This document shows positions 44,231 through 64,000 of a stretch of 64,000 bases of DNA, in pieces (the stretch's first letter is position 1; each line of letters begins with the position of its first letter). The DNA comes from Spirochaetia bacterium (GTDB lineage: Bacteria > Spirochaetota > Spirochaetia > DSM-16054 > Sediminispirochaetaceae): positions 224,557-288,556 of the forward strand of contig JAXHMY010000009.1 of NCBI GenBank assembly GCA_034520965.1. Reading direction: 5' to 3'. Position numbers and translations under genes: made by a program. Below the pieces are notes generated by a model. That model was not told where the DNA came from, did not search any database, and was given only the letters and a program-made list of their open reading frames with translations.

Positions 44231-44406
44231 GAGACTTTCTATCTATATTGGACATATTAGTCATGTATAGTAGAGAATTTGAATATGAAAAGGGCCATTT
44301 CTTCATATAGTTCATATACGTTGCGACAAAGTGATGTGAATTTGATGTGAGTCTGAATCATTGGGAAGGGCCGCTGCTCTCTTCCAACTGAGCCCGAAGT
44401 CCCAAT
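44189..44406 (-). repeat. tRNA-half-bounded repeat copy B
   Basis: tRNA 3' half, ~130-nt core, then tRNA 5'-half-like GGGACTTCGGGCTCAGTTGGAAGAGAGCAGCGGCCCTTC. Confidence 0.8.
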
Positions 44407-44959: not shown

Positions 44960-45116
44960 GCATTGTGACGTCGTGGGCCCGGCTATATTCCATCTGGATA
45001 CTGCGTCGCCGATCGGTCTCTTCGATCGCCTGCTCCATCGCCTTGGAGTGGCGGTCGGCGTACATAATCACCTTGCCGTGTTCATTCTGGGCCGCCCGGC
45101 CGATGATCTGGATCAG
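44960..45116 (-). pseudogene. uvrB: isolated internal fragment of uvrB
   Basis: hand translation [46 protein letters not shown]-rich patch in AT-rich DNA. Confidence 0.85.
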
Positions 45117-45721
45117 ATTTTATCGGTTAGTTTATTGTGAGAGACCTTCCATTTTATCTAAATTTAGTGTGTAGAAAAGTGTTTTATCTAAGTCAGGATT
45201 AATAGAGATTCTACAGAGTTCGTTTGCCGCTTATAGAGGCCGTATGCCGACAAATCAAAGACGTCGAGGAAATACGGCTCTACCAGATTTTTCAAGATTT
45301 CTCAGTCGGTACAGCCTTTGCAACACCGTTTTAGTGAAAACCAGGAATATTTTAGAAATATTCGTTCGGCATAGATTGTTCACTCAACGAATCGTTGACT
45401 GATGTCATTTTGAGACAACTCGAATTGATATCACCTTCCACGCCAAATCTAATGTAATCGGCAAGAAGTTGGTGTTCATCCAATACACTGCGTACGTTAT
45501 TTTGAAAATTCATAAGGATTTTAACCATCGGCCCCAAAAAAAAATTGCGGTATGCACAGTTTGTCCATGATAAAACAAGCCCCTTACTGCAATGGAGATG
45601 GATGTATTCTACAGTTGATTCGAATCTCCGACCTATAATTACTTCTTTCTCAGACAACCCACTACCAAATAAAAGTTTGCGAAAGCAGCCTTCTATATCT
45701 TAGAATTACAGCATGGAGGGC

Positions 45722-46270
45722 ATGATGAAACACGGATGCAAGAAACCAAGAGGGTGTCTGATGATTGAGCATCGTCTCATTGAGCGTGCGGTTGATTTGA
45801 TGCGGAAGGAGAAGGAGCGGCTCGCAGGTGGCGGAGAAATCGATCCGATTGCTATAGATACCCTTGCTGACTTCATTCAGGACCTATGCTGACCGCACCC
45901 ATCACGGTAAAGAGGAAGATATCCTCTTCGAGCACCTCGAGAAGCGGGACCTTTCTAAGAGTGAACGACAACTGATGGAAGAGTTGATTGAAGAGCACAA
46001 ACTGGGGAGGAAGCTTACGAAACAGCTCGTAGAGGCTGAAAAAAAGGGTAGTAGAGGCCAGTAATAGCCTGTCAGAAGTGATGGATGCGATGCAGCGATT
46101 GATCGACTTCTATCCAAAACACATAGAGAAGAAGATGATCATTTCTTTCCTGATACAGAGCGTCACTTTAGCTCGAAGGAGTCAGATGCGATGGTGGAAC
46201 GTTTACGCCTTTGATCGTGGGATAATCCATGAGAATATAAGGAGGTGGTACGACGAGTTTTACCTAATAT
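45722..46270 (+). pseudogene. hemerythrin-like domain protein, frameshifted
   Basis: LMIEHRLIER, YADRTHHGKEEDILF, EEHKLGR, YPKHIEK. Confidence 0.8.
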
Positions 46271-46443
46271 TGAGACAACGAAATCCGGGAGACACGCACC
46301 TTTGCTTTTCCGCTGCAGAGGGCCATCATTCCTGTTATGAGGATGCGAAAGGGCGATTTATGTGCCGGTCTCTCCAATTTTTGTAGTTTCAGACTTGCGC
46401 TCGAAGAATAATTTACTATCATTGAAATTATAGGAGGAAGAAA

Positions 46444-46869
46444 ATGCTTATTCGTAATGCCAAAGCTGCATGGAAAGATACAGTCTCAAAAGGAAAAGGT
46501 GCCGTTGAGCTCGGAAGCGGAGCCTTTAAGGGCTCGTACTCTTACGGTTCTCGATTCGAGGAAGAACAGGGAACCAATCCGGAAGAACTGATCGGGGCTG
46601 CTCATGCCGGTTGTTTTTCCATGGCCCTCTCTTTGGAGTTGGAAAACGCCGGATATACGCCGGTGTCAATCGCCACCCAAGCGAAAGTTCACTTGAATGC
46701 CAAAGAGCTTGAGATTTCCCAGATCGACCTGATAACGGAAGCGCAGGTGGAGGGCATCGAAGAGAGTGAGTTTCAGAAGATTGCTGAAGGCGCAAAAAGC
46801 GGTTGTCCCGTGAGTAAAGCGCTAGGCGGTGTGAATAACATCAATCTCACCGCCCGACTGCAGAAGTAG
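46444..46869 (+). CDS. osmC: OsmC peroxiredoxin
   Basis: SRFE..GTNPEELIGAAHAGCFSMAL, CPVSKAL; AGGAGG RBS. Confidence 0.93.
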   Translation: MLIRNAKAAWKDTVSKGKGAVELGSGAFKGSYSYGSRFEEEQGTNPEELIGAAHAGCFSMALSLELENAGYTPVSIATQAKVHLNAKELEISQIDLITEAQVEGIEESEFQKIAEGAKSGCPVSKALGGVNNINLTARLQK

Positions 46870-47038
46870 CGAGCCTGGTCTCAAAGAAAATCCGATCTGT
46901 TTGGGCCGATCATTCATCTGCTTGAGAAATTGAGGGATAACCTGAATTCATATAAAAACTTGGGGCTTGATATGAGTCGGCGATTCGTATCAAGCTTTAT
47001 AAACACTGAAACAGAATTCGCGGCCCATTCAGCTTTAT

Positions 47039-47085
47039 TACGTCCAGCAGAATTCGAACCTGCGACCTACGGCTTAGAAGGCCGC
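47039..47085 (-). tRNA. anticodon arm and 3' half of tRNA-Arg(TCT), fragment only
   Basis: minus strand GCGGC-CTTCTAA-GCCGT-AGGTC-GCAGG-TTCGAAT-TCTGC-TGGACGTA. Confidence 0.8.
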
Positions 47086-47249
47086 CTTTTTACCTATATT
47101 GGACATATTAGTCATGTATCAGTAGAATTTGAATATGAAAAGGGTCATTTCTTCATATAGTTCATATACTTCATGTCAAAGTGTTGTAACTTTGTTGTAA
47201 CTTCCTATTCAAGCAGTTGTCAGTTTCCAACTGAGCCGACAGTCCCAAT
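47039..47249 (-). repeat. tRNA-half-bounded repeat copy C
   Basis: core highly similar to copy B; ends in GGGACTGTCGGCTCAGTTGGAA. Confidence 0.8.
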
Positions 47250-47431
47250 TGAAAATACAATGCTGCACGCTTTCTCAGTTAAATTCACGCCTTTCCTCTC
47301 TTGAAGCAGATTCCCCTCTTTCATACTATCAGACCCGGGAAGGCAATTTTACCGATTTCGGTCTTGCGGTCCTCGATCACTTTTCCTATTATTTGGAGCG
47401 CGTGAGCTGATCGTCATCAAAGAGGGAGCAA

Positions 47432-48901
47432 GTGTTGCAAAACGATGAAAATATTTTCGAAGGTTTGGTAACGAATGAGCGTACCTACACAGAATTATTC
47501 CGGAACTTGTGTCGGTATAGGTTTTTTCGAGATGAGTTCGCACGGTTCGTGATAGAGGGTAGTAAGAAGGATGAAACACAAACTACACCGGCGTTATCCG
47601 GGTTCTCGTTCACTTTTCCTCAGATTGATACGCAGTGGTATGCTGAAGATTCAGGAACCTACCCCGACGTCGTGATCGATACGGACGATCTTCGACTCGT
47701 GATAGAGATGAAGACGAATACGTGGACCGGGTTTCAACCATCGCAACCCGAAACCTACCTCGAGGACTTGGCCCATCACAAGGCTGAGGTGAAAGGACTT
47801 CTTCTTCTCATGCCAAAGTATCACTCGCATGAACGTGCCATTACTGACAAAATCGACAAGTCACGGAATGACGCCGATGAGCAGCTGTTAATCCTTGTCC
47901 TTTATTGGGAAGATTTCATTCAAAGATTGATGGATGCGGGAGCACAAGAACTAAATTCGGTTTTCCGCGATTACATAGATCTATCAAATGAATGGTTTGC
48001 TAATGGGAGGATCATTCTGAGGCCTACCCAATGTTCGACGCTTCAACAATCGATGGGACAGGCTCTGTTCTCACTTCGGGCCTTGATAGAGGTGATCCAT
48101 GCACGGTTTTCGAGTTCCAGCAGTACAAAATTGAGTCGGATAAAGATGACCGACTACGACTTCGGTTTCTTCATCTCCGATGCCGACAAGACGATCGGAT
48201 ACTTTGGAGTTGCCAACTTCGCGTGGATCTATGGTCCATCACCGCTGTTGATAGGGGGCCATCCGCACTACGTGAAAACCAACAACACCGCCAATTTGAT
48301 CCCAGCTGAAGATGAGGATGGGCTGCACTACTGGGGAGTACCACGAAGCTTACTTGCCAGGCCGACGGCCCTCGACGAGATCGCGGAGCTTGTGGTAACG
48401 ACATTCAATGCAGATCAAAGAGGAAAAGGCGAAGTCGAGGATGACGTTCAGTTTAATGAAGCAGTTCTCACCACGCTATTTGACACGAAGGAAGGACCGT
48501 CTGCCTTTCAAAATCTTATCAGGACCGTCGATCAGACTAAGGTAGCTGCTACCGGAGCGGATCAAAACGTCACCATAGAAAATGCGGCTTCTCGATGGGA
48601 GCACTCGCTCTCTTTTTCCGTAGATGGGAGAGAGGTGGCCGGTATCGGGATCTTTTTCGGAGATTGGAAGAAGAAGGGCATGCCGCTATGGGTTGGCGTA
48701 CCCGAGCGTAGATTGAAGAGCCTACAGAAATCGTCGTGGAAAGGAACAGTGTCGGATTCCTATTATAGGGAACCGGAAAAGGGTGGTAAAAACCCATGGG
48801 TATACCGTGCTGTCGATCTCGAGCGGCTATCTGAACAAGATAATTTGGTTGAGTTCGTCCTGCGAATACTTGGAATGCTTGGTCTCAAAACGAATTTGTG
48901 A
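47432..48901 (+). CDS. PD-(D/E)XK nuclease-like protein
   Basis: NERTYTELF, PDVVI..LVIEMK, QPETY; C-terminal region unknown. Confidence 0.6.
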   Translation: MLQNDENIFEGLVTNERTYTELFRNLCRYRFFRDEFARFVIEGSKKDETQTTPALSGFSFTFPQIDTQWYAEDSGTYPDVVIDTDDLRLVIEMKTNTWTGFQPSQPETYLEDLAHHKAEVKGLLLLMPKYHSHERAITDKIDKSRNDADEQLLILVLYWEDFIQRLMDAGAQELNSVFRDYIDLSNEWFANGRIILRPTQCSTLQQSMGQALFSLRALIEVIHARFSSSSSTKLSRIKMTDYDFGFFISDADKTIGYFGVANFAWIYGPSPLLIGGHPHYVKTNNTANLIPAEDEDGLHYWGVPRSLLARPTALDEIAELVVTTFNADQRGKGEVEDDVQFNEAVLTTLFDTKEGPSAFQNLIRTVDQTKVAATGADQNVTIENAASRWEHSLSFSVDGREVAGIGIFFGDWKKKGMPLWVGVPERRLKSLQKSSWKGTVSDSYYREPEKGGKNPWVYRAVDLERLSEQDNLVEFVLRILGMLGLKTNL

Positions 48902-48917
48902 GTCTGAGCAAACTTGG

Positions 48918-49257
48918 TCAATCTCCATACTCAATAAGGCTACCTTCTGAATAGACATCGTTTCCTGTTCTCAGTATTAGCCGAAGTTTACCATTTACGG
49001 TATTCATAGTATTACTTTGATCAAATCTCCAATTCCTAATACTATTCAGTATTTCATTATCTACTTCTTCATTTCCGGAACCATCAATTACTTCGATAGA
49101 AGAGACTTTCCCGTCGGGATGAAGTATAAATGAGAACGTTGTAATTACTCTTGATCGTAACAATCTTGTTTGTTCTGTAGTTAATTCAGGCATAGGACTT
49201 TTTAATAATGTTCGAGAATCGTTACCTTCTATGGCTAATGACACTGATGAGTTTGTT
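48918..49257 (-). pseudogene. TonB C-terminal-like domain; 3' part of the gene interrupted by IS21
   Basis: FILHPDGKVSSIEVIDGSGNEEVDNEILNSIRNWRF; in frame with 51484-52225 after IS removal. Confidence 0.7.
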
Positions 49258-49318
49258 TGTCAACAGCGGTTTAAAAGTTCCGCTTTTCAACGGTGTAGCG
49301 GTTCCGCTTTTTAGAGTT

Positions 49319-50083
49319 TTACATAGGGTCAACGACCCCGATTTTCAGCCGGTCTTTCATACGGTATGAATCTCCTTTTAGGCTGAATACATGTGCATGA
49401 TGGAGAAGCCGATCGATGGTGGCTGTTGCAATAGCTTCCTCTGCCAGGACCTCCGCCCAACGACCAAAAGCCTTATTAGTAGTGAGAATCATACTGCCAT
49501 ATTCGTAACGGGCATTGACCACTTGGAAGAGAAGGTTCGCTTCTTCTTTCGAGAGATTCTCGTAACCGACTTCATCGATGAGGATCAGATGTGGTTTTCT
49601 TAGCCATGTCAGTCGGCGTTTCAAACGCCCCTGTTCACGTGCCCTTTTAAGTCCTTCGATCAAATCTATACAGCTGGTGTACCAGACAGTGAACTCGGTC
49701 ATGCACGCTTTGTACCCCAAGGCCAGCATGAGGTGGCTCTTGCCCAGGCCGCTGGGTCCCATGAGCACCACATTCTCTTTCCGCTCTATGAAGCTCAGTG
49801 AGGACAGTTCGGCAAGCTGACGGGCCGACAGGCCCCCTTTGAGCCAGGAGATATCAAAGTCCTCCAACCGCTTTACCGCAGGCATCCCCGAGAGCTTCAG
49901 GCGACTTCGAGCAGCCCTCTCTTTGCGGGGAAAGTATTCGAGCTCCAGCAGGTCTGCAAGGGACTGCAGAAGGGTTTTGTCACTATGGCTCTGCTCTTCG
50001 AGATAACTTTCCAGAGAGGCGGCCATGAACTGCAGACCCATCTCCTGCATACGGGTTCCTACCGTTTCGCTGAGTGCATTCAT
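49319..50083 (-). CDS. istB: IS21 helper ATPase
   Basis: GPSGLGKS, LIDEVGY, LTTNK..W, IDRLLHH, GDSYR. Confidence 0.95.
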   Translation of the reverse strand: MNALSETVGTRMQEMGLQFMAASLESYLEEQSHSDKTLLQSLADLLELEYFPRKERAARSRLKLSGMPAVKRLEDFDISWLKGGLSARQLAELSSLSFIERKENVVLMGPSGLGKSHLMLALGYKACMTEFTVWYTSCIDLIEGLKRAREQGRLKRRLTWLRKPHLILIDEVGYENLSKEEANLLFQVVNARYEYGSMILTTNKAFGRWAEVLAEEAIATATIDRLLHHAHVFSLKGDSYRMKDRLKIGVVDPM

Positions 50084-51359
50084 GAGGCCGCTCCTACCAG
50101 CTGATCGTAACAGGCGGGACTGCGTGTTTCCACCGATGTGGCTATTAGCTCATCAAGAATCTGCGGGTCCAAGTCACCTCCTGTGGTGCTTTTTTTACCG
50201 TAGGCCGTCGTTCGGCTTTCCAACGCTCTATGAGGCTTTCGGTATCCTCCTTGCGTATATTCATCTCCCGAGCCCCTTTGTCGAAAGGGTAAACTCACGC
50301 AGCAGCAGATTCTCCTGAGTGAATACCTGAGAACGGTAGTTGAGGGTATTTATTTTAGAGTAACCATTTGGCCGATATGCTCGGCAGGCACACTGTATTG
50401 GTTCGTCTGATAGGTCAACTTCCCCTCCCTGGAGACCACCAGGCCCACCCATCTCCCGTACATCGGGGGCAGCCTCCGGTACCCAGGTATTCATATAGGG
50501 CTTCTCCTCGGCAAACCTCTCGGCACGTGTGCTGCGAATACCGCCGATCTGCTGCGCATCTATCTTTTAAGCCAATCGGCGACTTCTCCGTTAAGCTCCT
50601 CGAGTGTCGTTCCAGCTCGATTCTCCACTCTCGGTAGAAAGTTATGCGCCAAATAGCCGATAAACCTCTCGACTTTGCCTTTCGTTTGAGGCCGGCGGAC
50701 CTTACACCTCAGAGGCGTAAACCCACAGGCCGAGGCCAATGAGAGAAGCCCAGGATTTACGATCCAACTGCCGCCCTGATTCAGCCAGGCGGTTTTCATG
50801 TTGTCGTAAGAGTATCTCTCTGGGCACAGCTCCAAACCAGGCAAAGGCCGCCAAATGTGCCAACAACACCGTCGAAAGCCTCATGTTGGTGGTAAACAGC
50901 ACGAAAGGCCGTCGACTGTAGCCCAACAGCATGACAAATGCATAGAGTTTCTGCATCCTCCCCTCGATAAGCCAGCTTCCACACTCTTCCAGTCGACCTG
51001 GGCTTGTCTGCCTGGCTCGGTTTCAAAGCGCAGCACCGCTTTGGTGATCACTTGCTCCCTGACCCCTCGGGCATAGTCCCGTAGATAGTCATCCCTCCCC
51101 CATACCTTTGACTTTTGAGCCGCTCATACAGCAGCACCAGGTTGGTGTAGGGATTCTCTTCGATCGTCTCATCGATTATTCGGTGAAACGGCTCGAGAAT
51201 GCTGCGACGCTTCTTTCGAGCTCTTGCTCCAAAGTCTTCTTTCAGGTACTTTCGTACCATACGGTCACTGACTCCGAGCTGTGCTGCGATGTCTTTCTGT
51301 CTGTGGCCTTCTCTGGCCAGGATGCGAGCTATATGCATCCGATCTTCCTTTCGACACAT
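50080..51359 (-). CDS. istA: IS21 transposase, multiple frameshifts
   Basis: N-terminal HTH, RFETEPGRQAQVDW, LGYSRR, YDNMKT, PQTKGKVER. Confidence 0.9.
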
Positions 51360-51483
51360 TTGGGCGGTTTCCTTTTGTGGTGTATTTTGGTCAATCCCAC
51401 TATAGGTTATCCGCCCTTATTTGTGTCGTAAAAGCGGAACTTTTAAACCGTCGATATCCGGAACTTTATCACCGTTGCTGACA

Positions 51484-52225
51484 CTTTGTTGTCTCAATCT
51501 TAACTGATGGTGTTTTTTCTAACGCTTTTGCCCAGTCTTTATAGCTCGTTTGAAATAGAAAGTCTTGAGTGAGAAAGGTATAGTTTGGATCGATGTAGTA
51601 GTTATCCTTCAACCATTTTTCATACGTCTCTATAAGACTTTTATCTGAAGTGAGTATATCTCTCAGTTCATTAGCATTACGGAGGTAGAAAGAATACTTT
51701 TCTGCTGGTTCCCATCCCATTGATAGGGTTTGATTGCTGAATTGAGAGAGGAATTGTTTTGTCTCTCGGAATTTGTAAAGGTAATATTTCTCAGGATATT
51801 TAAAAGTTAGATAGAGCGCTATCGCCCTGACATCTTTGTGGTAGTGCTGTTTTCTCTCGATCTCTTGTGGCTTCACCTGGTTCAAATAAGACAGAAACTC
51901 ATCACTTTTTTCGATAAAGATATTTATTCTCTCTTCTAAAGACTTATCCTCGTTAAAAAGATTACGAAACATACTTCGAACAGATTCTTGATCGAGTTCA
52001 ACAAGCTCAATTATCATCGTTTTGGGATAATATTGCTTAGAAGCCCATAGATTATCCGATTCAGCCTGAAGGCTCTTATCAAACATTTCCTTGAAGTCTT
52101 CAGCCTCTATATCCCAGTTATCTTGAAAGTTTTTTAGAGCCTCTAATTTGTACCTTTCGTCTGTGTTACCTTCAGCGAAGACTTTCTTACTCTTCGATAT
52201 ATGGTTTTAACTTTGACTCATTCAT
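51484..52225 (-). pseudogene. McrB-N-terminal-like domain gene (5' part), 2-nt deletion near start, cut by IS21
   Basis: ERYKLEALKNFQDNWDIEAEDFKEMF, MFRNLFNE, HYHKD, YLTFKYPEKYYLYK resemble N-terminal domains seen on McrB-like GTPases (recalled, not searched). Confidence 0.5.
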
Positions 52226-52274
52226 ACTACTATCTCCATCAGAATTTTATAATTTAGCGCTAATTCCAAGATCG

Positions 52275-53852
52275 TTATCTACCTATCGCTTCACGAGTTC
52301 TTCGTACAATAATTTCACCGTTTATAATTTTTTCTTTTGCTTTTTGTACCGCATCCCTAACATCATTAGGTACCATGTCGTCAAAATTGTGAAAAGGTGA
52401 GATACCCACAGCATCCTGCTGAAGACCGTAAACTTTGGTACCACCTTCGAAATTGCTATTAACCACAGACTGAACTAATAAATACACTGATTGTGAAATC
52501 TTCTTTTCAGCAGAAGTAAGTACGGTATCCGGGGCAACGTTATTTTGGTCGACATCAACACCGATTGCCAATACACCTTCCTCCTTCGCCGCCTGGATAG
52601 CACCAAGGCCTGACAGGCCAGCGATGTGGAAAATAATATCAGCACCCTTATCGATCATAGCAAGAGCAGCTTCTTTACCCTTTTCCCGGTCAACAAAAGT
52701 CCCAGCAGTTTTGGACAGAACCTTACAGTCTGGGTTTACGCTGTGTACCCCCTGAATAAATCCGACCTCGTAGTTTTCTACAGGAGGAATCAGCATACCA
52801 AGAACAACACCCACCACATTTTCATCGTTGATTTTATCGGTTTTATCTGCATGCTTCTTTGTCATCATACCGGCTACGACACCTGCCAAATATCCAGCCT
52901 GCTCTTCTTTATACAGCATTCCTTGAAAGTTTTTTGGATCATTTTCTCCAGCACCAATATCAATTCCAGCAAAATAGGTATACGGCATATTGCTGGCAAC
53001 CTCTTTTACAGCCGATTCCATCAGAAATCCGACTGCAAATACGATATCAGAACCGTCCTCCGCCAATCCAGTAAGGTTGGGAATGTAATCGGTTTGCTGC
53101 ATTGACTCAATAACCTTGATTCTAATTTCCTCGAGTTTTTCCTCAGCCATTAGCAGACCCTGATAGGCTCCGTCGTTGTAAGATTTATCACCTAAACCTC
53201 CAACATCGGTAGCCATAGATATAAACTTGCTTTTATTGTAAACCTCAGGAGTATACGAGGAAACATTTTCATAAGATTTATAGTTTTGCAAAATCTTACT
53301 CAGTCCTTCTATATTATATTGACTTTGCCTATAATAATTAGTCTCATTATATATTTTAATCACCAAATTGTTTGATTCGGTAATAGCGTTATAAAAGTAA
53401 AAAGGATTATCAGAATACTTAATTAAGTAATCATTTATGAGTTTCCATCTTGTTTTTATTCTTTCATTGTGTGAACCATATTCTACCTGTACAGTGTTAG
53501 TTTTATTTGCCAGATCTAAAGAGTTTTGTAATCTTATAAATACATTTGAATTAGAGAGATCATTATTTATAACCTCTATTATTAACTCTGAGGACTCATC
53601 CTCATTACTTTTAATGATAAGTAGCTTGCTTGAATTTTCTTTAATTTGTATGTTATCAAAACTCGTCTCTCTTTCGAATAACCAAGATCCATTATCTCTT
53701 ATTATTATTTTCTTCCCCGTACTTAACTCGAACATATCATCAGCAAATATCGTACAGGAAATAAAAACAGATAAAACAACTACAATAATAACTTTACTTT
53801 TTAGATTGACCATAAAAACTCCTAAAACAATAATTAACTTTTTTCGTGCCAC
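52275..53852 (-). CDS. chimeric exported protein: unknown AT-rich N-terminal domain plus BMP-family binding domain
   Basis: DVGGLGDKSYND, EEQAGYLAG, AGLSGLG, IGVDVDQ from about residue 210 onward. Confidence 0.8.
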   Translation of the reverse strand: MARKKLIIVLGVFMVNLKSKVIIVVVLSVFISCTIFADDMFELSTGKKIIIRDNGSWLFERETSFDNIQIKENSSKLLIIKSNEDESSELIIEVINNDLSNSNVFIRLQNSLDLANKTNTVQVEYGSHNERIKTRWKLINDYLIKYSDNPFYFYNAITESNNLVIKIYNETNYYRQSQYNIEGLSKILQNYKSYENVSSYTPEVYNKSKFISMATDVGGLGDKSYNDGAYQGLLMAEEKLEEIRIKVIESMQQTDYIPNLTGLAEDGSDIVFAVGFLMESAVKEVASNMPYTYFAGIDIGAGENDPKNFQGMLYKEEQAGYLAGVVAGMMTKKHADKTDKINDENVVGVVLGMLIPPVENYEVGFIQGVHSVNPDCKVLSKTAGTFVDREKGKEAALAMIDKGADIIFHIAGLSGLGAIQAAKEEGVLAIGVDVDQNNVAPDTVLTSAEKKISQSVYLLVQSVVNSNFEGGTKVYGLQQDAVGISPFHNFDDMVPNDVRDAVQKAKEKIINGEIIVRRTREAIGR

Positions 53853-53872
53853 ACTTATTGCCTATAATAAAT

Positions 53873-53901
53873 AGACTAAACCCATACAACTCAGTTGTCC
53901 A
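53873..53901 (-). promoter_or_regulatory. promoter TGGACA-N17-TAGTCT, copy 1
   Basis: boxes and 17-nt spacing conserved in copy 2 at 63962-63990 despite spacer changes. Confidence 0.65.
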
Positions 53902-53905
53902 TCCC

Positions 53906-53933
53906 AAAAGAGTACACCCGGGTGTACTCTTTT
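53906..53933. other. 28-bp perfect palindrome (11-6-11), candidate recombination site
   Basis: AAAAGAGTACA-CCCGGG-TGTACTCTTTT; right arm recurs at 57926-57936. Confidence 0.7.
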
Positions 53934-54074
53934 ATAGCCTCCTACTTATATCGCTCATCAGTATTACCTTCCGCGAAGACTTTCTTATACTCTTCGATAT
54001 ATGGCTTATAGCTTGGACTCATTCATACTACTTTCTCCTCATTATGAGGATAAGGCATGATCTGAGAGTTGTCT
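53923..54074 (-). repeat. copied gene-start module, copy 2
   Basis: homologous to 52135-52237 and 57926-58081; RBS then broken MNESKL.. reading frame. Confidence 0.85.
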
Positions 54075-54104
54075 ATGTTATATCGGAATCGTAGCCTATC
54101 GATA

Positions 54105-55599
54105 GGTAGCTGATTAATTTTATGGGGGGATAAAGACTATTAATTTCTACACCTAACTGGTAAAATCTTCTCAGTACTTATAGGGAGGGAAGAGATGAGC
54201 ATACCAGAGGAAGTGATAGATCAGATATTTGAAGAGGTAAAAGAAGAAATTAAAGGGCAAAAGGCCCTTTCAAGTGAAGAGCCGCAGACGTTTCATGACA
54301 TTGAAGGGTCGATCTTAGCTATTCGCAAACGGTTCTCAGAACGCCTAGCAGAAGTTGCAATGGAGTATGAGGGGCAAAAGGAACAAAAAAAAACTGCCCA
54401 ATTTGCGGAGGATCAGCAGAGAGCAAGGGGAAGAAAAAAAGGCAGTTAGTAAGCCCCCTGGGCGAACTGAGAGTGAAAAGAAGGGTCTACAAATGCAAAG
54501 ATTGTAATCACTATTTCTATCCCTTGGATCACCATCTTGAAATAGCTCGCAGTAGTGCAAGTAAGCGTTTCGCAAAAATAAGTGCAATGATGAGCGTCTT
54601 TGCTCCATTCGAGCATGTACGCACCATGCTCAGCGAGACACTGGATATACAAGTCAGTCGAACATTTCTCAGCCAGATAGCTCACCGAATCGGCTCGAAG
54701 TTCTATCAACAAGCCCAACAGAACCAAGAAACCTCTCTATCTGAAGATCAAGGGCCGGAAACACTGTATATACAGGCCGATGGGGCAATGGTTCCGATCA
54801 GTGGAGAAGAAGGGCTGGAATTCAAGGAAAATAAGTTAGGTTTGGTCTTTAGTGAAGAGGATATTGAGCATAGAAAAACAAAAAACGGGAAGGAGCATAC
54901 AAAGATTCACCACAAGCGCTTTACTACCAGCCTGGCAAAAGGAACAGATGAGTTCAAAGAAATGCTCCATAACTCAGCCAAGAGCAAGGGGTTAGAGCAA
55001 GCGAAGACTACCATTTTCTTAAGTGATGGGGCCAGCTGGTTGAGAAAATATCGTCGTGAGTACTATCCCGGGGCGATTCAGATTCTCGATTGGTACCATG
55101 TGGTTGATCACTTATGGGCGACTGCACATAAATTATGGGGAGAGACGCAGAAACAAAAATCAGAGAAATGGGTAGAGCCTCTAAAGGATTTACTATGGGA
55201 AGGAAAAACCATTGAGGTTTTGGATAGGATTCGAGAGCACGCATTAAAGCGAAAGAAAAATCAGACCCCACTTTGGGAATTACACACGTATCTGTTCAAT
55301 AATAAAGATTTTTTGCGCTACCCTGAGTATCGAAGTAAAGGCTACTACATAGGAAGTGGTGCAATTGAGAGTGCAAATAAGTATGTGGTGACCAATAGAA
55401 TGAAAATGGCTGGAATGAGGTGGTCAATTCAAAAAGCAAACTCTCTGATCTGGCTCAGATGCAAGTACTTTGAAGATCAATGGGACTCAACCTGGGAACA
55501 GATAGAATCTTCGTGAGTATCTTGATTGGAATCCTGAAGAGGAGATGGAAAAATCTGCTTAACTGTGGCTTCTTGCCCCCACAAAATTAAACCGCCACC
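54105..55599 (+). mobile_element. ISKra4/ISLre2-like (UPF0236, IS256 superfamily) element
   Basis: imperfect terminal IRs GGTAGCTGATTAATTTTATGGGGG / CCCCCACAAAATTAAACCGCCACC; 8-bp duplication TATCGATA at 54097-54104 and 55600-55607. Confidence 0.88.
54195..55516 (+). CDS. transposase, two ORFs joined by a -1 shift at A9C
   Basis: CPICGG..CKDC, ADGAMVP, SDGASW, LDWYH, IGSGAIES, RMKMAGMRW. Confidence 0.88.
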
Positions 55600-55886
55600 T
55601 ATCGATAACTCATGTACACCAATTCGAGAACGTAGAACTATTAAATCACTATTTGGCATATAAAAGGATTGCGAGCACAGGTTATGTTTCTCAAAAGCGT
55701 AAGAAGCTGGCTTTGATCCGAATTCGCTGAACTGATTTTTTCTTTTTCACTCACGTATTGGTCAGCGAGCGGGGCACGCTCCTTTCTCCAATGCTTTCAG
55801 GTCGTTTGTGCGTGTATTACAATCAATCGGTCCGTTTTGAAGGGTTTTGTAGACCAACAGGATGAGCCTGTTCGCTCCAGAGTGGC

Positions 55887-55966
55887 GATTTGTGCCGATT
55901 TTGGGCGGAAGGCCCCCGTTTTCACCAGTTTTCGCCTTGACGCCTCGGATAACTTTTCCTATCATT
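55887..55966 (+). repeat. 80-bp promoter-bearing repeat, copy 2
   Basis: near-identical to 41793-41872. Confidence 0.85.
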
Positions 55967-56051
55967 TTAATCAGCAACAGAATTTATAAAATGAGAAAAG
56001 AAAAGGAAAATAATTAGATTTGACGTAACGAAATAGCCGGGAGGAGGCAAA

Positions 56052-56294
56052 ATGATGGTTAAAGTAGAAATCTGTGCAGGCAGCCACTGCTCGCTTGTCG
56101 GAGCTTTAGATATTTTAGAAACTTTAGAAGAACTGCAGGAAGATTATCCAGAGCAGATTGAAATTAAAAAAACTGAATGTATGGATAAATGTTTTGATAT
56201 GAAAAACGCGCCTGTTGTTAAAGTTGATGATGAACTGATTACTGGTGCTCAAACTCAGGTGGTAATCAGTAAAGTAATGGAGAGGATAAAATGA
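56052..56294 (+). CDS. thioredoxin-like [2Fe-2S] ferredoxin (NuoE-like small subunit)
   Basis: ICAGSHC..CMDKC..APVVKVD; GGAGG RBS. Confidence 0.8.
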   Translation: MMVKVEICAGSHCSLVGALDILETLEELQEDYPEQIEIKKTECMDKCFDMKNAPVVKVDDELITGAQTQVVISKVMERIK

Positions 56295-57810
56295 GTAAAC
56301 TAAAGGGTATCTTTACAGATATAGTAAAAATACGAAGAATGGTTTTTGCTGAGCTGGCAAGGCTGGCTCTTAAAGATGCAGATTATGAAGAATTTGATAA
56401 AATTCCCTTTAGAATTATTGATACTGAAGAGGCTACATATCGTTCAAGTATTTTTGAAGAAAGAGCGATAGTTGCCGCCAGAGTTCGAATGGGATTGGGT
56501 ATGGATTATGAAATAAATCAGGAACATAAACTTTTATCAGAAGGGATGTAGAGAATTTTCTTAAAAATGATAATCAACTGAAAGAGCCGCTGGTTAATGT
56601 TATTCGTTTTATTTGCGAAAAATGTCCGACTAATGCTCATTTTGTAACTAATAACTGCCGTAAATGTCTGGCTCATCCCTGCAGTATTGTCTGTCCGGTG
56701 GATGCAATTACCATTGAAGAGGAGGCGGCTGTTATTGATCAGGAAAAATGTATTAACTGCGGCAAATGTAAGGAGGCCTGTCCTTATGAAGCAATAGTTA
56801 ATTATGAGCGCCCCTGTGCTGCAGCCTGTGGCGTTGATGCGATAGAAAGTGATGACTATAATCGGGCTAAAATAAATCAGGATAAATGTGTCAGCTGTGG
56901 TCAGTGTATTATTGCTTGTCCTTTTGGGGCTATTGCTGATAAATCAATGATCTATCAGCTGCTTAAGGATATCAAAAGAGGAGAAGATGTGCGGGCAATT
57001 ATTGCTCCTTCTTTTGTCGGTCAGTTTGGTCCTTTAGTCTCTCCCGAAAAAGTTATAGCAGCACTTAAAGTACTGGGAATCGAAGAAGTGAGAGAGGTTA
57101 GTTTAGGAGCAGATGATCAATCTTTACATGAAGCTGAACTTTTTGCTGAAGATATTCCGGATGAGCAGCCATATCTCGGTACTTCCTGCTGTCCTTCCTG
57201 GACTTATGTGGCAGATAAACATGTGCCAGAAACAAAAGATAATATTTCAGAGTCGAGTTCTCCAATGATTTTTGCAGCTCAATCTGTTAAAGAAGATAAT
57301 CAGGACAGTAAAGTTGTATTTATCGGTCCCTGTGTTTCCAAAAAGCTGGAAGCATTAAGCGAGAAGGTAAGAGCTGAAGTCGAATATGTAATTACCTTTG
57401 AAGAACTGGCCGCTATGTTTGTGGCTGCTGATATTGAGCTGACCAAAGTTGAGGCTGAAGAAGAAATTAATGATGCATCTTACTACGGCCGTGAATATGC
57501 TAATGCCGGTGGAGTAGCAGAAGCAATCAGACAGAATTTAAAAGAGAAGTATGATATTGATCCACCTGTCGCTAAAGCTGATGGACTGGCAGACTGTAAG
57601 AAAACTTTAACTAAGGCCAAAGCTGGTGTGCTCGATGGTCATCTGATTGAAGGAATGGCCTGTGAGGGTGGCTGTGTTGGTGGGCCCGGAGCCTTACTGG
57701 CAACTAATAGAGGGGCTAAAAATGTGAAAAAGTTTGCTGATGAATCTCCCTATAAATTTGCCTTTGAGAATGATAAATTAAAAAAAGATCGAAATGATAA
57801 TAATGAGTAA
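56291..57810 (+). CDS. monomeric [FeFe]-hydrogenase (group B-like) with 4Fe-4S dicluster domains; frameshift near 56550
   Basis: H-cluster motifs TSCCPSW, GPCVSKKLE, EGMACEGGCVGGP; CxxCxxCxxxCP ferredoxin motifs. Confidence 0.88.
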
Positions 57811-57925
57811 TAGTTTTTCAAAAGTAAAAATCAGTTACTTTAAACTTCAAAAAGTTAAGATATTAATCAACTCATTCTAAATTCCTCATTTTTATTATGC
57901 TACTTTAATAAAGATGATGCCCAAG

Positions 57926-58081
57926 TGTACTCTTTTATTGAATCCCATTTGTATCGCTCGTCAGTCAGTGTTACCTTCAGATATGACCTTCTTATACTCT
58001 TCGATATAGGGCTTTAGTTTAGACTCATTCATACTACTTTCTCCTTATAAAAAGGATAAGGCATGATTCGAAGTGTTGTCT
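57926..58081 (-). repeat. copied gene-start module, copy 3
   Basis: MNESKLKPYIEEYKKVISEGNTD*, ends at the TGTACTCTTTT arm. Confidence 0.85.
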
Positions 58082-58713
58082 TACTTTCTAAGAATGGTAA
58101 AATAAGCTTCATCGTTTATACTTTTTCTATTCTTTTTCCATCTATAATATAATTTTGATTGTTTTCTTATGTGTTCGATATCTGTCTTATGCTTATGTTG
58201 TAAAGAATCAATTACTTGTACTTTACTAATCATATATGGCATTACATCTGCACATAAATCATTATTTAATGAAATGGGAATAAAAACTTCTCCTACGCCT
58301 CTTTTAGGCACCTCTATAGGTTCAGTAGTGAATGGTATAATACAATGATTCAGTCCAAATACACCCCACCTCAATGATACGCGAACTATGGTTACTGGAT
58401 TATTACTGAAGTTTTGCAACCTTATCCAAAGAAAGGTTTTTTTATTTGTAATCCACTCATGTCTAAGTAATCTGAACGATTTCTTTATTACACTTTCTTT
58501 CTTATTTCTATCTATAAAACTTATCCATTCAGAAGGTACTGGAAAAGCATCTTTTGGAGTTATTTTAACAACTTCATTGGGTACAAGCCATGTAGTTCCC
58601 TTTATCTTTAGCCATCTTTTTCTGTTTATTTGTATAATTGAATATATAGCAAAAATTAGAGAAACAATTACACTAATTGCTGTCCAATTAATTGGTAACA
58701 ATTTGAACATCAT
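58081..58713 (-). CDS. hypothetical protein with N-terminal membrane anchor
   Basis: 210-aa AT-rich ORF, GAGG RBS, hydrophobic N-terminus. Confidence 0.6.
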   Translation of the reverse strand: MMFKLLPINWTAISVIVSLIFAIYSIIQINRKRWLKIKGTTWLVPNEVVKITPKDAFPVPSEWISFIDRNKKESVIKKSFRLLRHEWITNKKTFLWIRLQNFSNNPVTIVRVSLRWGVFGLNHCIIPFTTEPIEVPKRGVGEVFIPISLNNDLCADVMPYMISKVQVIDSLQHKHKTDIEHIRKQSKLYYRWKKNRKSINDEAYFTILRK

Positions 58714-58849
58714 AAAACACTTATCCTCTCAGTAGATTTAAATTATGATATAATTAAGAGTTCGGCTGGATTGATATATGAGTTATTAATTTGCAAAGCA
58801 CCATAATTTTCCCCTATTTGGTTCTTGTAAAAAAAGATATTATTCTGTC

Positions 58850-59892
58850 CTACGAACCCCATACATTTACTGACCGGGCGTCAAAAATGTGGACTTTGCA
58901 GTCAAAATCATCAACGATACTCTCAATGTGTTCTCGGTCTTTCTCAGAATAGACTCCTATATAAATACTCCACAGCTTTGGGGGACTCTTCTTGCCATGT
59001 TTTGCTGCCTTATTAATGGCATCTATGAGATGTGTATCATATTCGCCGAAGTTGAAGCCAAATGTCACAAGTGATCCTGTGATCTTTGTACAGTTGTTCA
59101 AAGCAAAACGCTAAATACTGGTTGTGCTTGATATGGGTAAGCTTTTCTCGCCATTGCCAGCAGTCACGAAAATTGGATATTCTTTTCGCTCCATTCGCTT
59201 GTTGATGTTCTCAAGAAGAAGGTGTTCGCTGTCATACTCCTCTTTAACAATTTCGATTCCGGTATCGAATATCGGAAGTGCGCCATGCAGGTAGTAAATA
59301 GTCTGCTCTTCCTTGTGCTTTCCCCATCGAAGTTCCGAGTATTCTAGTTCATCTTCCGGCACCCATTCGTCAAGATTCTCTCGATCTCGGCCAAATCCAT
59401 CGACAGAGTTTTGGATCTTGTTGCGTAACAAAATCCAGTAAAGCAGAATGTCATAGTATGTGTGGTGAACACTTTGCCGCCATTTTCCAAATACCATCTT
59501 AAGAAGGAAGCACACGCTTCATTCTTATTATCGGAGATCTTAAAAACGTGCTCTGGATGAAGTTCTTTTACAGCATCTATGAGGCTCGCTTTTAGCTGAG
59601 AACTTGCAGAATCAATACGCTCCTGTAGTGATTGATCTGCGCCGAGCGCCTCTACTAATTCTGAAAAGTTATCGAGCTGTTGCATCACAAGCTCAAAGTT
59701 CTTTGTGTTGACTATTTCGAATAGCTTTGACAGCAATTCGTTGTCAATTTTAGCTATAAATTGATGCAAAGCATTATATGAGAAGATTTCCGCATCGAAG
59801 GCCATACTAAAGCCATTGCCAAGAAGCAAATTTACATCGCGGTCTTTCTTCCTTAATTCTTTCTGTATGCCTGGATATGTTTCAAGTTTCAT
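58850..59892 (-). CDS. DUF4917-family (SIR2-like) protein, two frameshifts
   Basis: LLLGNGFS, YDILLYW, DGFG, YYLHGAL, FGFNFGEYDTH. Confidence 0.75.
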
Positions 59893-60098
59893 AATGTTTT
59901 TTCTTAAACTGCTGTAGAACTATCGAGCAGACCTGTTTTCCATTGGTCTGTGAATCTCAAATCATAGCCCGTTTTATTCTTCACCCTCTAATCTTTTTCC
60001 TATGATTTTAGACATGCTAATTCTGCTGGTCCGCTTCTCTCTTGCTCTACCTCTGAAGGCCTTATATATGCTATGTGGCAATGCATATATCTTCTAAA

Positions 60099-60893
60099 TT
60101 ACTTTGAATAACTAACTCTTGTAGGTACAACCCCATTTGCACCAATCTGTTTTTTCCTCCAATCAACAATGAACTTATAAGCTGCTTGTTGAATTGTATC
60201 TAACCTATCTGTTACATATTCGATTTCTTTAACACTAATATTATTAAATCCATGCGCAATACTATTTCTAAGACTGTTATTATCATCAATCCAATTTTCA
60301 TCTCCATTAATTATAGGCCATTGGTTATTATCACCCCATAAGAGTTTAAAACATTCCCAAATTTGGCTTATAGTACCTTTTTTTGCAGTATCATTTTTTG
60401 GATGGTATTTAGTTGCTATTATTTCAATACTATTCCAATAAGCCAAGAACTTATCGAATGGATCTTCTGTGTTTAACCCTTTCCTATACCAACTTAATGA
60501 TCTTTGAAAGTGTGGTTTATCAAGAATTCTCCAAGATTCATAATAAGCATGTGCAAATTCCTTTTTGTCTATGACGCGTCTAACTTCGTATTCTTCTATA
60601 TGAATATTTTCATAATTGCTTATTTTCAACGGTAAATTTATTATTATTGCAAGATAATCAATAATTCTGCCAAAAAATAGTATTGCAGCCTTTTTTGCTA
60701 AATCTTCGGATATGGCTTTAGCTGTAACATATACTTTCAAACCTTGTGTTTTATTATTTATAATTTCTATATCACTGTAAAAAGGATCTCTGTCTGCTTT
60801 CCACTCTTTTTTTGCACTCATCTTGAAGCGATTATTAATAGAGATAGGTCCTTCTATATATAAAGTTACGATCCAAATCGTATTATCACTCAA
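60099..60893 (-). CDS. HEPN-domain protein (MauJ/ApeA-like)
   Basis: SLSWYRKGL..DKFLAYWNSIE and RNSIAH (Rx4H). Confidence 0.7.
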   Translation of the reverse strand: MSDNTIWIVTLYIEGPISINNRFKMSAKKEWKADRDPFYSDIEIINNKTQGLKVYVTAKAISEDLAKKAAILFFGRIIDYLAIIINLPLKISNYENIHIEEYEVRRVIDKKEFAHAYYESWRILDKPHFQRSLSWYRKGLNTEDPFDKFLAYWNSIEIIATKYHPKNDTAKKGTISQIWECFKLLWGDNNQWPIINGDENWIDDNNSLRNSIAHGFNNISVKEIEYVTDRLDTIQQAAYKFIVDWRKKQIGANGVVPTRVSYSK

Positions 60894-60940
60894 ACATTTA
60901 CCTCTTTTTATTAATATATAAAATCAATAATAAATTCTCA

Positions 60941-61745
60941 TTATTTTCCATATTGTTTCACTAATGAACCTATTAAAAAATCTGTTAATGTTTTACTTGC
61001 ATTAACTGCTAACATTGCATGATGTTTTTCAGGATTATATTTTCCTTGGATGTGAATCACTCATGTCATTTCGCATATTTGATAATCCATTTACTATCGA
61101 ATTTAGTCCAGATAGTATTTGCTTAATTGAATCGGGATAATCTTTATTCTTAAAATCTAAATTTAAGATATTTTTTATTCTTTTATATGCAGCTAATAAG
61201 TCTCCTTTGTGGATATAATTTTTATCATATTTACTTAAAATATCTAACATGACTGCTTCACACAGAGTTCTAGCATTCGTTATTGCTCCATCGTAATCAT
61301 TATCAATTATTTTTTGATCACATTTGTTTAATTGTTCAGAAACATAATCATTTTCAAAAGCTTCAATATTTTCTGCTTCTATAACCTTTTCTTCAATTGT
61401 ATATATTTTAGTAATCTTTTTATTTTTTTCTAACTTATATCCATCATATTGCAGTAGTTCATTAACCTTTTCTATTGCATAATCAATATCATGTTCCGTA
61501 TCAAAGAAATGTCTCGGATGAAAAATTTCTTCTAATAATCTGGTTAATTGCTCTGTTCCATTAATTTCAGACAGTTTAATTTCAGTATAATACCATCTAG
61601 ATGGAAATCCTTTACCATAAACATCTCTTGATCCATAACTATTAAACAAATCTACAAGGTTTGGTCCACTTAAATATGGTGTGTAACCAGAATCACCGCA
61701 AATAATTTTTGATAAATGCTTTATTGTAAAATCTGATAATTTCAT
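60941..61745 (-). CDS. abortive-infection family protein (AbiJ-type N-terminal domain plus Abi_C HEPN); 1-nt frameshift near 61040
   Basis: YLSGPNLVDLFN, FPSRWYY, LQYDGY, GAITNARTLCE, RNDMSDSH; tail HHAMLAVNASKTL in another frame. Confidence 0.8.
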
Positions 61746-61765
61746 TTTTCTTCTCCATTATTGCC

Positions 61766-61868
61766 ATATAACATTCACTTGAGTCGCCTGGCGTTAAGCT
61801 GGCGCGTGTTCTTGCGTAAGCAAGAACCGTGACAGTAGCCACGACTGCTCCATTTGCTTGTTATACTG
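61766..61868 (-). other. integron attC site
   Basis: minus strand CAGTATAAC (R'')..GAGCAGTCG..GTTCTTGC-ttac-GCAAGAAC..CGACTC..GTTATAT (R'), ~100 bp, between a stop codon and the next RBS. Confidence 0.82.
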
Positions 61869-61872
61869 TAAA

Positions 61873-63794
61873 CTATGTTAAAAATTTCACAATTCTTTTT
61901 TCTATCCCGTCTTTTAATTTTCCAAAAAAAAGGCGTAGAGTAAAACCAAATCCAATATTCAAAATCGTTAGTACAGCCAACACACCCTGGATTGTATATT
62001 TTATTATCTTATTACTAATACTAGTATGCGTTAATATAATACAAGCTATAAAAATTACAGCAACTATTATCGCAAAGATGTAAGTTATGATTTTAGAAAT
62101 TAATGAAGAGCGTAAATGTACTTTATTTATAACCTTTCTGCTATTTTCTATAGCTTTTTCTTTTTTTTCATTAATTGAAACTAATTCACTAATCTCTTTA
62201 TTCTTTCCATCAACAATATTATGAAACTCATCTTCTAATGGCTTAGATACATCCCTTTTAAATTCCTCTAGCATCTCTTGAGGCAGCTCATCATCAAAAA
62301 CATCTGGATTTCCGAACACTTTATCCTCAAGCTTATCTATTGCGGCCTGAGTTTTCATAAAATAAAATTCTGCCTCAGTTATAGCGTTATCATCTTTTAA
62401 CTTTTTGAGCTCGTGTATATATCTATTTACGAGTTCATGGTTTGGTTCTAAAAAAGAAATCGTATCTGTGATGATCTTTTTTTCGTAATTCTTCAATTAT
62501 TGGTGGATCTATCTAACCATACATGTGTTCCGACGAATACATCGGTCACACATTCAGGTATATAGAATCTGCCTTTTTCTTCTAAAATATAATTCCTAGA
62601 AGAGCGAGCTAAAGCACTATTGGTAGTGATAAAAACAGCATTACAATTTCTTAGTGAGGAGAAAAAATGACCTTTTCTATATTGCCTGATGCGTGAGATT
62701 GATTTTACATCTCGAAGTATTACATTTCTTTTTTTCCATTGCAAGAACGTATCTTGTTGAATATTATATTCTTCTAAAATTAATTCTTCTAATCTTTTTT
62801 CATTTATAAACTCATCAAGTTCTTTCAACTCTATTGTGCCGTCATACGTTTTTATGCCATACTCATTAAGAGTTTTCTCTAATTTTGCTTTGATTAACAT
62901 AATATCACTTGCAGAGTATTTCTCTTCAATGAAGAATTTCAAAGAAGGTCCGATGTACTGCAAGCTACTTTTATCACGCCCAATGAGTCGAATTGATTCA
63001 TCTAAGATATGATTTGCCTCATCGATTGTGTGTTCAAAGACTTTAATCTTTGCCTTATTCTTCTTTAACATTACCAATAATGTCTCATAATAGCCCTGCT
63101 TCTCTTTACCTTCTAAGCCAATCAATCGAAGCAGCAATCTTGTATCTAGGAAAATAGAACTATTCTTTAATGATATCCTTCGATTCTCTATATTTGAGAA
63201 AAATATTGTTGATGCAAATAAGTACCCGACAGCTAATTCTACTATTATTCTAAAATCATGCTCCCTGTTATTATATAATTCAGTTATATATTTGTAAAAA
63301 ACGTATTCTTCCTTTTGGCTTACGCTCGTTTCCGGCAATATAGATTCACTTAGTATTAGTAGTTCTGCATCATATTTTTTTAAGTATGAGATTATTATAT
63401 CTGTAACTTTTTCTTCAGATATTTTTATATTATAAACATCTAAGCAAAATTTACAAAAATCATCATATATATACTCAATTTCCTTCTCTTTTTGTTTTAC
63501 ATGTTCTGTAAATGCGAATTTATCTATTTTACTTTCAATGAAAATGTAGTTGTCACTTGATTTTTTGATTAGCTTTGATCGCATGCCTCGACTAAGAATG
63601 GATCGAAGTGCATGATATGGTATTTTTATACCGTATTTTTCTTTGAAATCACTCTGTATCTTTGGTATATCAACACTTTTGTAACTCTTTTCCTTAGCTA
63701 ATGACGCTATAAAAGGTAAAAAAGTATCTAAGTAATCTCTGCCGTGTTCAATATTGGCCTTTAACACTGCTACACATTTAACCGTTTCGATCAT
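61873..63794 (-). CDS. large PIN-like protein with two C-terminal TM helices (ORFs 62493-63794 and 61873-62496, likely one frameshifted gene)
   Basis: IFLDTRLLLRLIG, DVKSI, FITTN; hydrophobic C-terminal pair. Confidence 0.55.
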
Positions 63795-63828
63795 CTTTTC
63801 TCACCCTATTTTTTTTATCAGTATAACA

Positions 63829-63848
63829 TTTATATTCGGCAGAACCAT
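63829..63848 (-). other. R' crossover site (GTTATACTG) of a truncated attC or attI-like site
   Basis: exact 9-nt complement of R'' at 61860-61868; no upstream R'' found within ~150 nt. Confidence 0.65.
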
Positions 63849-63961
63849 GCTAATTATATCTCATCACTCATCATTAGTCAGAAGCAATAAACAGTGATTA
63901 CTTACCATATAAAACCGCAAAATAGCTACATAACATCATATACAATGCCTTACTATCTTGT

Positions 63962-63990
63962 AGACTAAACCCTCATACCTCAGCTGTCCA
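63962..63990 (-). promoter_or_regulatory. promoter TGGACA-N17-TAGTCT, copy 2
   Basis: homologous to 53873-53901; points into the cassette array. Confidence 0.6.
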
Positions 63991-64000
63991 GCCTTAAAAA

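Follow-up and report, generated by a model that had tools for sequence, protein, structure and literature searches.

Cargo blocks that lie between 28-bp sites and carry no recombinase of their own are known as pdif modules. The crossover sites of serine resolvases and invertases are dyads of 26-28 bp with a 2-bp core, and the insertion sequence (IS) IS1397 enters the hairpin loops of repetitive extragenic palindromic (REP) sequences with a 3-4-bp duplication. The Xer site dif is 28 bp long, and the spirochaete dif sites predicted in PMC3025954 are of conventional type. Integron cassettes can enter genome sites other than attI, named attG (bioRxiv 10.1101/2022.09.11.507474), and tandem accretion at tRNA-targeting integrative mobilizable and cis-mobilizable elements (IMEs and CIMEs) is described in PMC5704250. 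How defence islands gain or reorder multi-gene blocks without a recombinase is a largely open question. Here we analyse a 64,000-nucleotide stretch of contig C9 (the window) from a salt-pan spirochaete, a single genome whose assembly comprises 3.35 Mb and is 86% complete. In the window, and on a second contig, C8, cargo blocks of a mobile island, dominated by anti-phage genes, meet at a terminator-like 28-bp palindrome, and the joints are readable to the base.

Palindromic sites and their junctions

The sites are designated S1 and S2 in the window and S3 and S4 on C8, the promoters P1-P3 and the starts of the gene mcrB M0-M3. Window position 64000 is the last base of C9, and the end of the window thus coincides with the contig end.

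53906-53933, no strand: S1, a perfect 28-bp palindrome with 12-bp arms around CCGG; a terminator-like hairpin, the joint in its intact form
57921-57936 (apparent full site 57909-57936), no strand: S2, a half-site with one exact 12-bp arm and a different core, joined to foreign DNA at the hairpin-loop position
57886-57917, plus strand: a weak AT-rich hairpin of 12 pairs 3' of the hydrogenase gene; z -1.36 over a 101-nt stretch, not significant alone
C8:4-31: S3, AAAAGAGTACAC CCGG TGGGACTCTTTT, a poor hairpin with 2 inner pairs; P3 follows
C8:19023-19050: S4, GAATTAGTCCCA CCGG GTGTACTCTTTT, a poor hairpin with 2 inner pairs, overlapped by the mcrC stop codon
63996-64000, no strand: five A at the contig end, likely the outer edge of a further site

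A reading made earlier from the letters of the window (the sequence-only reading) had described the perfect palindrome S1 and a second copy of its right arm, and both are present: the arm at 57926-57936 is identical to that of S1. The degenerate left arm which it assigned to S2 is an apparent match. Nine of its 11 bases form the 3' arm of the separate weak hairpin, and S2 is therefore a half-site, for which no partner half was found in the host genome. The genome contains exactly five copies of the 12-bp arm AAAAGAGTACAC, all of them at joints in the window or on C8; by our estimate, chance would give about 0.4. The predicted S1 hairpin has a free energy of -15 kcal/mol (centroid) and a z of -2.7. 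Perfect palindromes alone are not rare in this genome, 14 of the 33 that reach at least 20 bp attaining 28 bp.

S3 and S4, 19 kb apart on C8, are reciprocal hybrids. When their halves are swapped at positions 12-16 of 28, and only there, S1 is restored letter for letter together with a second palindrome; the crossover is thereby bounded to the central CCGG. The second rebuilt palindrome has 9 inner pairs and would stand directly behind the mcrC stop codon, ending in a T run; 18 of 2,000,000 random half-pairs from island DNA attained as many inner pairs. A perfect 24-bp inverted repeat encloses the 19-kb block, and the two rebuilt palindromes are not independent, because they are the same fact as this repeat. 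Since an exchange of the S3 and S4 halves within CCGG yields both palindromes, a single central crossover likely admitted the 19-kb defence block. Longer homologies, the mcrB start of about 150 bp and the promoter module of about 185 bp, were available yet unused for this block. S2, where the exact 12-bp arm gives way to foreign DNA at about the loop position, is a second, separate junction there. Its promoter end and its mcrC end are contiguous on C8, so that the simplest history is a circle closed at its own mcrC terminator, which would have entered an S1-type site.

For comparison we used Logan contigs of run X1, which may derive from the source sample, and of run X2 from the same sample as X1. 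C8 begins with CTAAAAAGAGTACA, in agreement with the predicted continuation if the end of C9 joins the start of C8. Such a direct join is probable. It is supported by positive GC skew on both contigs, by attachment (att) site and tRNA in register, and by the matching five-A run; five A or T stand likewise at C8:3-7 and C8:19047-19051. One X2 contig extends 13 letters beyond position 64000. If the contigs join, the orientation of the C8 block is opposite to that of the window blocks. X1 contigs cover 30 of 30 bins of window positions 46500-64000 and differ from the window to the left of S1 and hardly at all to its right. Their summed depth, which gives no copy number and was not used as evidence, drops from about 8 to about 5 at S1.

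We tentatively read these joints, with a probability of about 0.45, as products of a dedicated site-specific system in which blocks are joined at the palindrome centre by a trans-acting recombinase. The terminator-like palindrome would be the point at which cargo blocks were joined, with crossovers at the central CCGG. The hydrogenase block and the block at 58-64 kb would have been stacked at the same kind of site, and the symmetric core would permit either orientation. The repeated joint between cargo blocks, as the sequence-only reading had it, is borne out by further copies with different cargo at C8:4-31 and C8:19023-19050. Its suggestion that any enzyme would act in trans is supported as well.

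Gene starts, promoters and cassettes within a tRNA-Arg element

Beside the arms lie the starts of a single gene, mcrB, and the promoter-like sequences precede integron cassettes.

51484-52225, minus strand: M0, the 5' part of mcrB, frameshifted near codon 12 and truncated by the IS21 element
49258-51483, minus strand: IS21-family element with terminal inverted repeat and IstB, with 98% copies on C2 and C3; it cuts off the window mcrB
53934-54075, minus strand: M1, promoter-like sequence, ribosome-binding site and the first ~32 mcrB codons, decayed; meets S1 at a Lys codon
57937-58080, minus strand: M2, a second decayed mcrB start; meets the arm at the same base as M1
C8:9120: M3, a fourth gene start, that of the interrupted mcrB on C8
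53873-53901, minus strand: P1, predicted promoter-like TGGACA-N17-TAGTCT
63962-63990, minus strand: P2, predicted promoter-like TGGACA-N17-TAGTCT; heads a ~185-bp module 79% like C8:28-206
63821-63834, minus strand: attI-like cassette entry point, crossover 63827/63826; TTATAC complementary to the inverse core of its own attC; same position as C8:192/193
61873-63794, minus strand: first cassette gene, one gene of a ~645-aa family split into 433 + 207 aa; 19 relatives of 452-670 aa, most 624-670
61766-61866, minus strand: attC of the host genome's integron family, from an attC scan and alignment with C8 and C3 attC

M0 is 88% identical to the McrB of C8, which scores as McrB and precedes mcrC; the closest McrB proteins outside the host genome are about 50% identical. 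The gene-start copies that the sequence-only reading saw beside both arms are real. Its 'long version' starting at 52225 is mcrB, itself frameshifted and cut by the IS21 element. M1 and M2 are 82% alike over 158 bp, with a further copy at 52132-52237; both are frameshifted and one has a stop. In 31 codons, M0 and M1 differ by 11 silent and 2 replacement changes, and M1 and M2 by 8 silent and 5 replacement changes. The four starts form a mosaic, with 3' variants common to M1 and M2 and middle variants common to M1 and M0. The mostly silent differences and the mosaic pattern indicate that the starts diverged as working genes and exchanged sequence.

The arm is not native mcrB coding sequence, since at the next residues 82 of 83 aligned rows have F and 74 of 83 have Q. 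The simplest cause of the mcrB-to-arm join would be a loss of mcrBC by deletion across a 4-5-bp match to the arm. The mcrB starts would then be left-overs of sister units that lost their mcrBC body, and could also serve as homology for ordinary recombination. One X2 contig matches M2 up to 58080 and continues with other sequence upstream of M2. On C8, mcrB is interrupted by an IS481/Mu-C-like element, which bears its own ends and contains a recombinase-in-trio (RIT) element; the rest of mcrB and mcrC follow, and the 19-kb block comprises promoter, cassettes and mcrBC. The RIT element is present in two 99.9% identical copies (L001:10802-14286 and C3:385381-388867), each inside an IS481/Mu-C-like transposase gene and with a 26-bp palindrome at one end.

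The repeated TGGACA-N17-TAGTCT lies, as the sequence-only reading gave it, on the minus strand at 53901-53873 and 63990-63962. A promoter scan returned 46 sites where 44.6 were expected. The P3 module on C8, behind S3, and the final 186 bases of the window are 79% alike. Integron attC sites on C8 lie at 1341-1463 and 2688-2819, together with one truncated copy and one degenerate end. The same attC family forms an array of at least 21 sites beside intI on C3, a contig other than those with the joints. This integron (C3:40600-81000) has attC sites of about 130 bp, and a lone attC stands at C2:425974.

Of 18 adjacent cassettes, 15 begin with six bases that complement the cassette's own inverse core, compared with 37% at random pairing. 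For the first cassettes this rule requires TTATAC behind P2 and TTAAGT behind P3, and each occurs once in its own leader, at the same module position (63826 and C8:193). From these letters the P2/P3 module appears to behave like a promoter with an attI that has no adjoining intI. Contrary to this attI-like reading, the similarity of the modules continues about a dozen bases past the entry point, C8 has an A where a G is expected, and the likeness to the C3 attI is slight. Integron cassettes stand directly behind the two promoters, where the integron integrase encoded by this genome likely inserted them. In each block, recognisable cassettes are confined to the first one to three genes. The first cassette gene behind P3 (L001:223-1314) opens with a 48-bp (16-aa) tandem repeat and has no Pfam or PADLOC match.

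The chromosomal integron integrase would accordingly load cassettes behind two of the promoters. A platform of two tiers, in which a trans-acting recombinase of no known site class stacks and flips blocks of promoter, cargo and mcrBC at the symmetric 4-bp core of a terminator palindrome while the integrase-less attI of each promoter is reloaded with defence cassettes by the chromosomal integron, seems unlikely as a whole. An attI-like entry point that rides on an island apart from intI would enable a chromosomal integron to pass cassettes to mobile DNA.

The remaining cargo and the island end are as follows.

52275-53852, minus strand: block 1 cargo, a 525-aa protein with a C-terminal Bmp domain (Pfam PF02608)
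54097-55607, plus strand: ISKra4-family element with inverted repeats and an NF033572 match above cut-off, inserted just upstream of M1
56052-57810, plus strand: 2Fe-2S ferredoxin-like gene and broken [FeFe] hydrogenase of Halanaerobium type (Pfam; 90% identity to a Halanaerobium saccharolyticum protein)
58081-61745, minus strand: defence-type cargo, a 210-aa protein without assignment, DUF4917/PDC-S21 (split), MauJ/HEPN-like, AbiJ
47039-47106, minus strand: tRNA-Arg-derived attachment-site remnant, the left island end; Rfam tRNA match, 87% over 47-48 bp to tRNA-Arg(TCT) at C8:30689-30764, same strand

Outside the cassettes, the cargo of the blocks includes AbiJ, PDC-S21, an OLD/Gabija-like ATPase and a TIR-like gene, and the C8 cargo is low in GC. 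Block 1 (52275-53852) gave no attC in the attC scan; its Bmp solute-binding domain is island cargo, fused behind about 210 aa of unrecognised sequence. The DNA of the ferredoxin-hydrogenase pair has no match in 16 same-family genomes, and by its sequence the pair is a cross-phylum capture. It is broken near 56550 and lies directly behind a host repeat also present at 41793-41872.

Past S4, C8 carries a rep-O-like gene with four palindromic repeats, a primase, a tyrosine integrase and tRNA-Arg(TCT), in this order. An integrase beside the tRNA is thus paired with a tRNA-derived direct repeat at the far end, although the closing att remnant depends on the contig order. Given these genes on C8 and the att remnant in the window, the joints lie in the cargo region of an integrase-primase element at tRNA-Arg, and all sites are in or beside it. 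An Rfam scan gave the tRNA remnant as its only match. The palindromic repeats (L001:19374-19492, 20 bp each), 320 bp from S4 and before the rep-O-like gene, are a likely origin or operator. Serial tRNA-Arg att remnants with shared flanking repeats were observed at window positions 43399, 44211 and 47062, at C1:29176-62574 and at C9:26922-26968; with a second near-identical integrase on C1 they amount to tandem accretion at tRNA-Arg. Furthermore, window positions 44382-49261 recur inverted at C9:24741-29623 (4.9 kb, 98.6% identity, att remnant included), close to the opposite end of this contig, with different cargo beyond each copy, which may reflect a large inversion, a second island or a strain mixture. 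The genome also harbors a REP-like family of perfect 26-46-bp palindromes with core TTGGATAGTGTAATTACACTATCCAA, in about a dozen copies (window 39967-40002, also C1, C2, C3 and C8). The surrounding tRNA-Arg element, the identity of mcrB and the cassette nature of the genes behind the promoters were missing from the sequence-only reading.

Evidence against a dedicated system and rival explanations

Several results weigh against a dedicated system. The genome contains 15 tyrosine-recombinase matches, including XerC, XerD, two RIT copies, three tRNA-linked integrases, IntI and one stand-alone gene; they have other evident jobs or none known, and none is tied to the site. Neither the serine-recombinase families PF00239 and PF07508 nor the telomere-resolvase family PF16684 had a match in the 86%-complete genome. 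A switch confined to a 4-bp core is not the usual product of tyrosine recombinases with a 6-8-bp overlap. The independent central junctions number only two, from one genome, and the mcrB-to-arm join lies at the outer edge of the arm, a crossover point different from CCGG. Against the C9-C8 join stand one discordant base and two competing contig ends: C1 and C9 both start with an att remnant that faces the contig end. The intI of C3 is split by a frameshift in the assembly. Among the X1 and X2 contig matches listed for the window, there was no joint at the sites and no empty site, circle or flipped block.

The distribution of the site points in the same direction. An exact pattern, which fits S1 and S3 only, was absent from 400 genomes of the phylum, and neither site nor gene start was found in 60 relatives, one of which had a weak 26-bp match outside the site. 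The search of relatives for the arm and the gene-start module that the sequence-only reading had proposed gave no second genome with the site. A scan of 185,579 genomes returned a single match, terminator-like, in an unrelated Bacteroidaceae genome. Four distant mcrBC loci from metagenomes all lacked the site, as did all six stretches around related integrases or primases in other spirochaetes.

Related primases are present in 8 of 400 genomes and related integrases in 4 of 16. No S1-like 28-mer with up to 9 mismatches was found in the 8 primase loci or in 6 longer stretches. In viral contigs, neither the McrB start nor the McrB alignment nor the primase had a relative, and an arm-plus-promoter pattern gave four hits, none with a left arm or GC core. 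Genome G353 carries a related integrase-primase element at tRNA-Thr, with nested palindromic repeats directly behind the primase (L053:4745-4859). This palindrome was rejected as a copy of the site, being a different repeat.

A switch within the four central bases fits a serine-type enzyme or a 4-bp staggered cut better than a tyrosine recombinase. Accessory subsites of serine-recombinase type were not recognised, and repeated transposase sites inside the ends were not found in repeat searches, which can miss short degenerate repeats. IS200/605, IS110 and RIT enzymes are present in the genome, and nothing connects them with the site. The stand-alone tyrosine recombinase (L043:2850-3923; C1:864.9-865.9 kb), with an N-terminal extension of about 95 aa and below all NCBIfam cut-offs, is a candidate trans-acting enzyme. 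No second genome and no empty or circular form was found, there is no sign of current activity, and an active undescribed system would go beyond these results.

Less favoured, and still a real possibility, is that no dedicated system exists. The hairpins would be related intrinsic terminators of sister islands and the mcrB starts deletion relics; the stack would have been built by RecA-type exchange between the mcrB starts and by a crossover or break in a hairpin loop on one or two rare occasions. The second rebuilt palindrome, on the mcrC stop codon and with its T run, fits this explanation, and the near-identical palindrome in the Bacteroidaceae genome also stands behind a stop codon. The promoters follow hairpins, as at operon boundaries, the mcrB starts are a mosaic, and no recombinase for the site was found. 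By our estimate CCGG makes up about 1/5-1/4 of the identical bases between the hairpins, so that a single chance crossover there would not be extreme. However, there are two separate loop junctions, the reciprocal product is clean on both sides, and much longer homologies were bypassed. Moreover, M1 and M2 differ mostly silently yet share their end base. S1 folds but is absent from a consensus terminator scan, S3 and S4 fold poorly, and only the rebuilt site follows a stop codon. Were this explanation true, the locus would be an island of ordinary kind, heavily rearranged and occasionally broken at its terminators.

It is improbable that an integrative unit targets mcrB at codon 32-33, supplies a new promoter and gene start and leaves the displaced start before the palindrome. 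Such a unit would account for the minus-strand order at block 1 (displaced start, site, promoter, cargo, new start and mcrB body), for the mostly silent differences between the starts, as between M0 and M1, and for an arm that is not native McrB sequence. It leaves S2, S3 and S4 unexplained, however, no block contains an integrase, and the displaced start is absent from all four mcrBC loci outside this genome. Still less credible is an assembly artefact, in which several strains collapsed around a hairpin produced hybrids and breaks. Contigs do break at the site, frameshifts are many, C9 carries the 4.9-kb inverted duplicate, and X1 contigs diverge from the window on the left of S1 and hardly on its right. 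On the other hand, the modules are 79-86% alike rather than identical, the cargo is distinct, S1 and S4 are internal to contigs, and X1 coverage of the region is complete.

The classes proposed by the sequence-only reading, Xer/dif-type sites used by the host XerCD or transposon ends of Mu/Tn7/Tn552 type, can largely be dismissed and are the least probable: the 28 bp can be read as 11-6-11, TGT and ACA are present and the XerC and XerD genes lie on C8 (the XerD copy broken in the assembly), but the likely chromosomal dif shares only 8 of 28 bases with S1 in either orientation, published spirochaete predictions are conventional, the flanks CCCAAG and CCCGGT show no 5-6-bp target duplication, and the IS481/Mu-C-like element in mcrB has its own ends. 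The TGT...ACA ends, at 57926 and C8:14, hold only if the contigs join. The dif site (C2:178561-178588) was the one of 25 candidates from a loose search that lay at the GC-skew switch, a stricter first search having given nothing useful.

Comparison with known systems

Literature searches, few and made by words only, showed no such site among the papers listed. The surrounding element resembles tRNA-targeting IMEs and CIMEs and phage-satellite-like integrase-primase elements in its tyrosine integrase at a tRNA 3' end, tRNA-derived att repeats, primase and rep genes, defence cargo and serial att remnants. Unlike in these, the palindrome at which blocks are stacked here is internal, a second site with no relation to the att core of the tRNA, and the blocks carry neither att nor integrase. 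The cassettes behind P2 and P3, with attC sites away from intI, are akin to arrays known as clusters of attC sites lacking integrases (CALIN), to single such sites (SALIN) and to attG insertions. In contrast to these, the same base of one promoter module received different first cassettes in its two diverged copies, of which the C8 copy has A, not G, at the crossover. They also differ from a complete integron, as intI is not beside the window and C8 cassettes but on C3.

With Xer/dif and pdif modules the joints share a 28-bp site readable as 11-6-11 and cargo blocks between sites without a recombinase of their own, whereas S1 is unlike the host dif, has a GC-rich symmetric core and two like arms, and does not lie at the terminus. 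Serine resolvase and invertase sites are dyads of this size; the hybrid switch within the central 4 bp and a symmetric core that would allow both orientations are further likenesses, but the corresponding genes and accessory subsites did not appear in our searches. A parallel with IS1397 is that the C8 block allows a reading as an insertion into the S1 loop, with TG...CA ends, 7-bp inverted repeats and a duplicated CCGG. Its ends, however, resemble the target arm (9 of 12 bases) and match no IS end in the region, and no transposase belongs to them. Parts of islands and integrons that are already known make up the frame of the locus. What they leave unexplained is the crossover at the centre of a terminator-like palindrome, and the joints offer a substrate of defined sequence, 28 bp long, for a small number of candidate enzymes.

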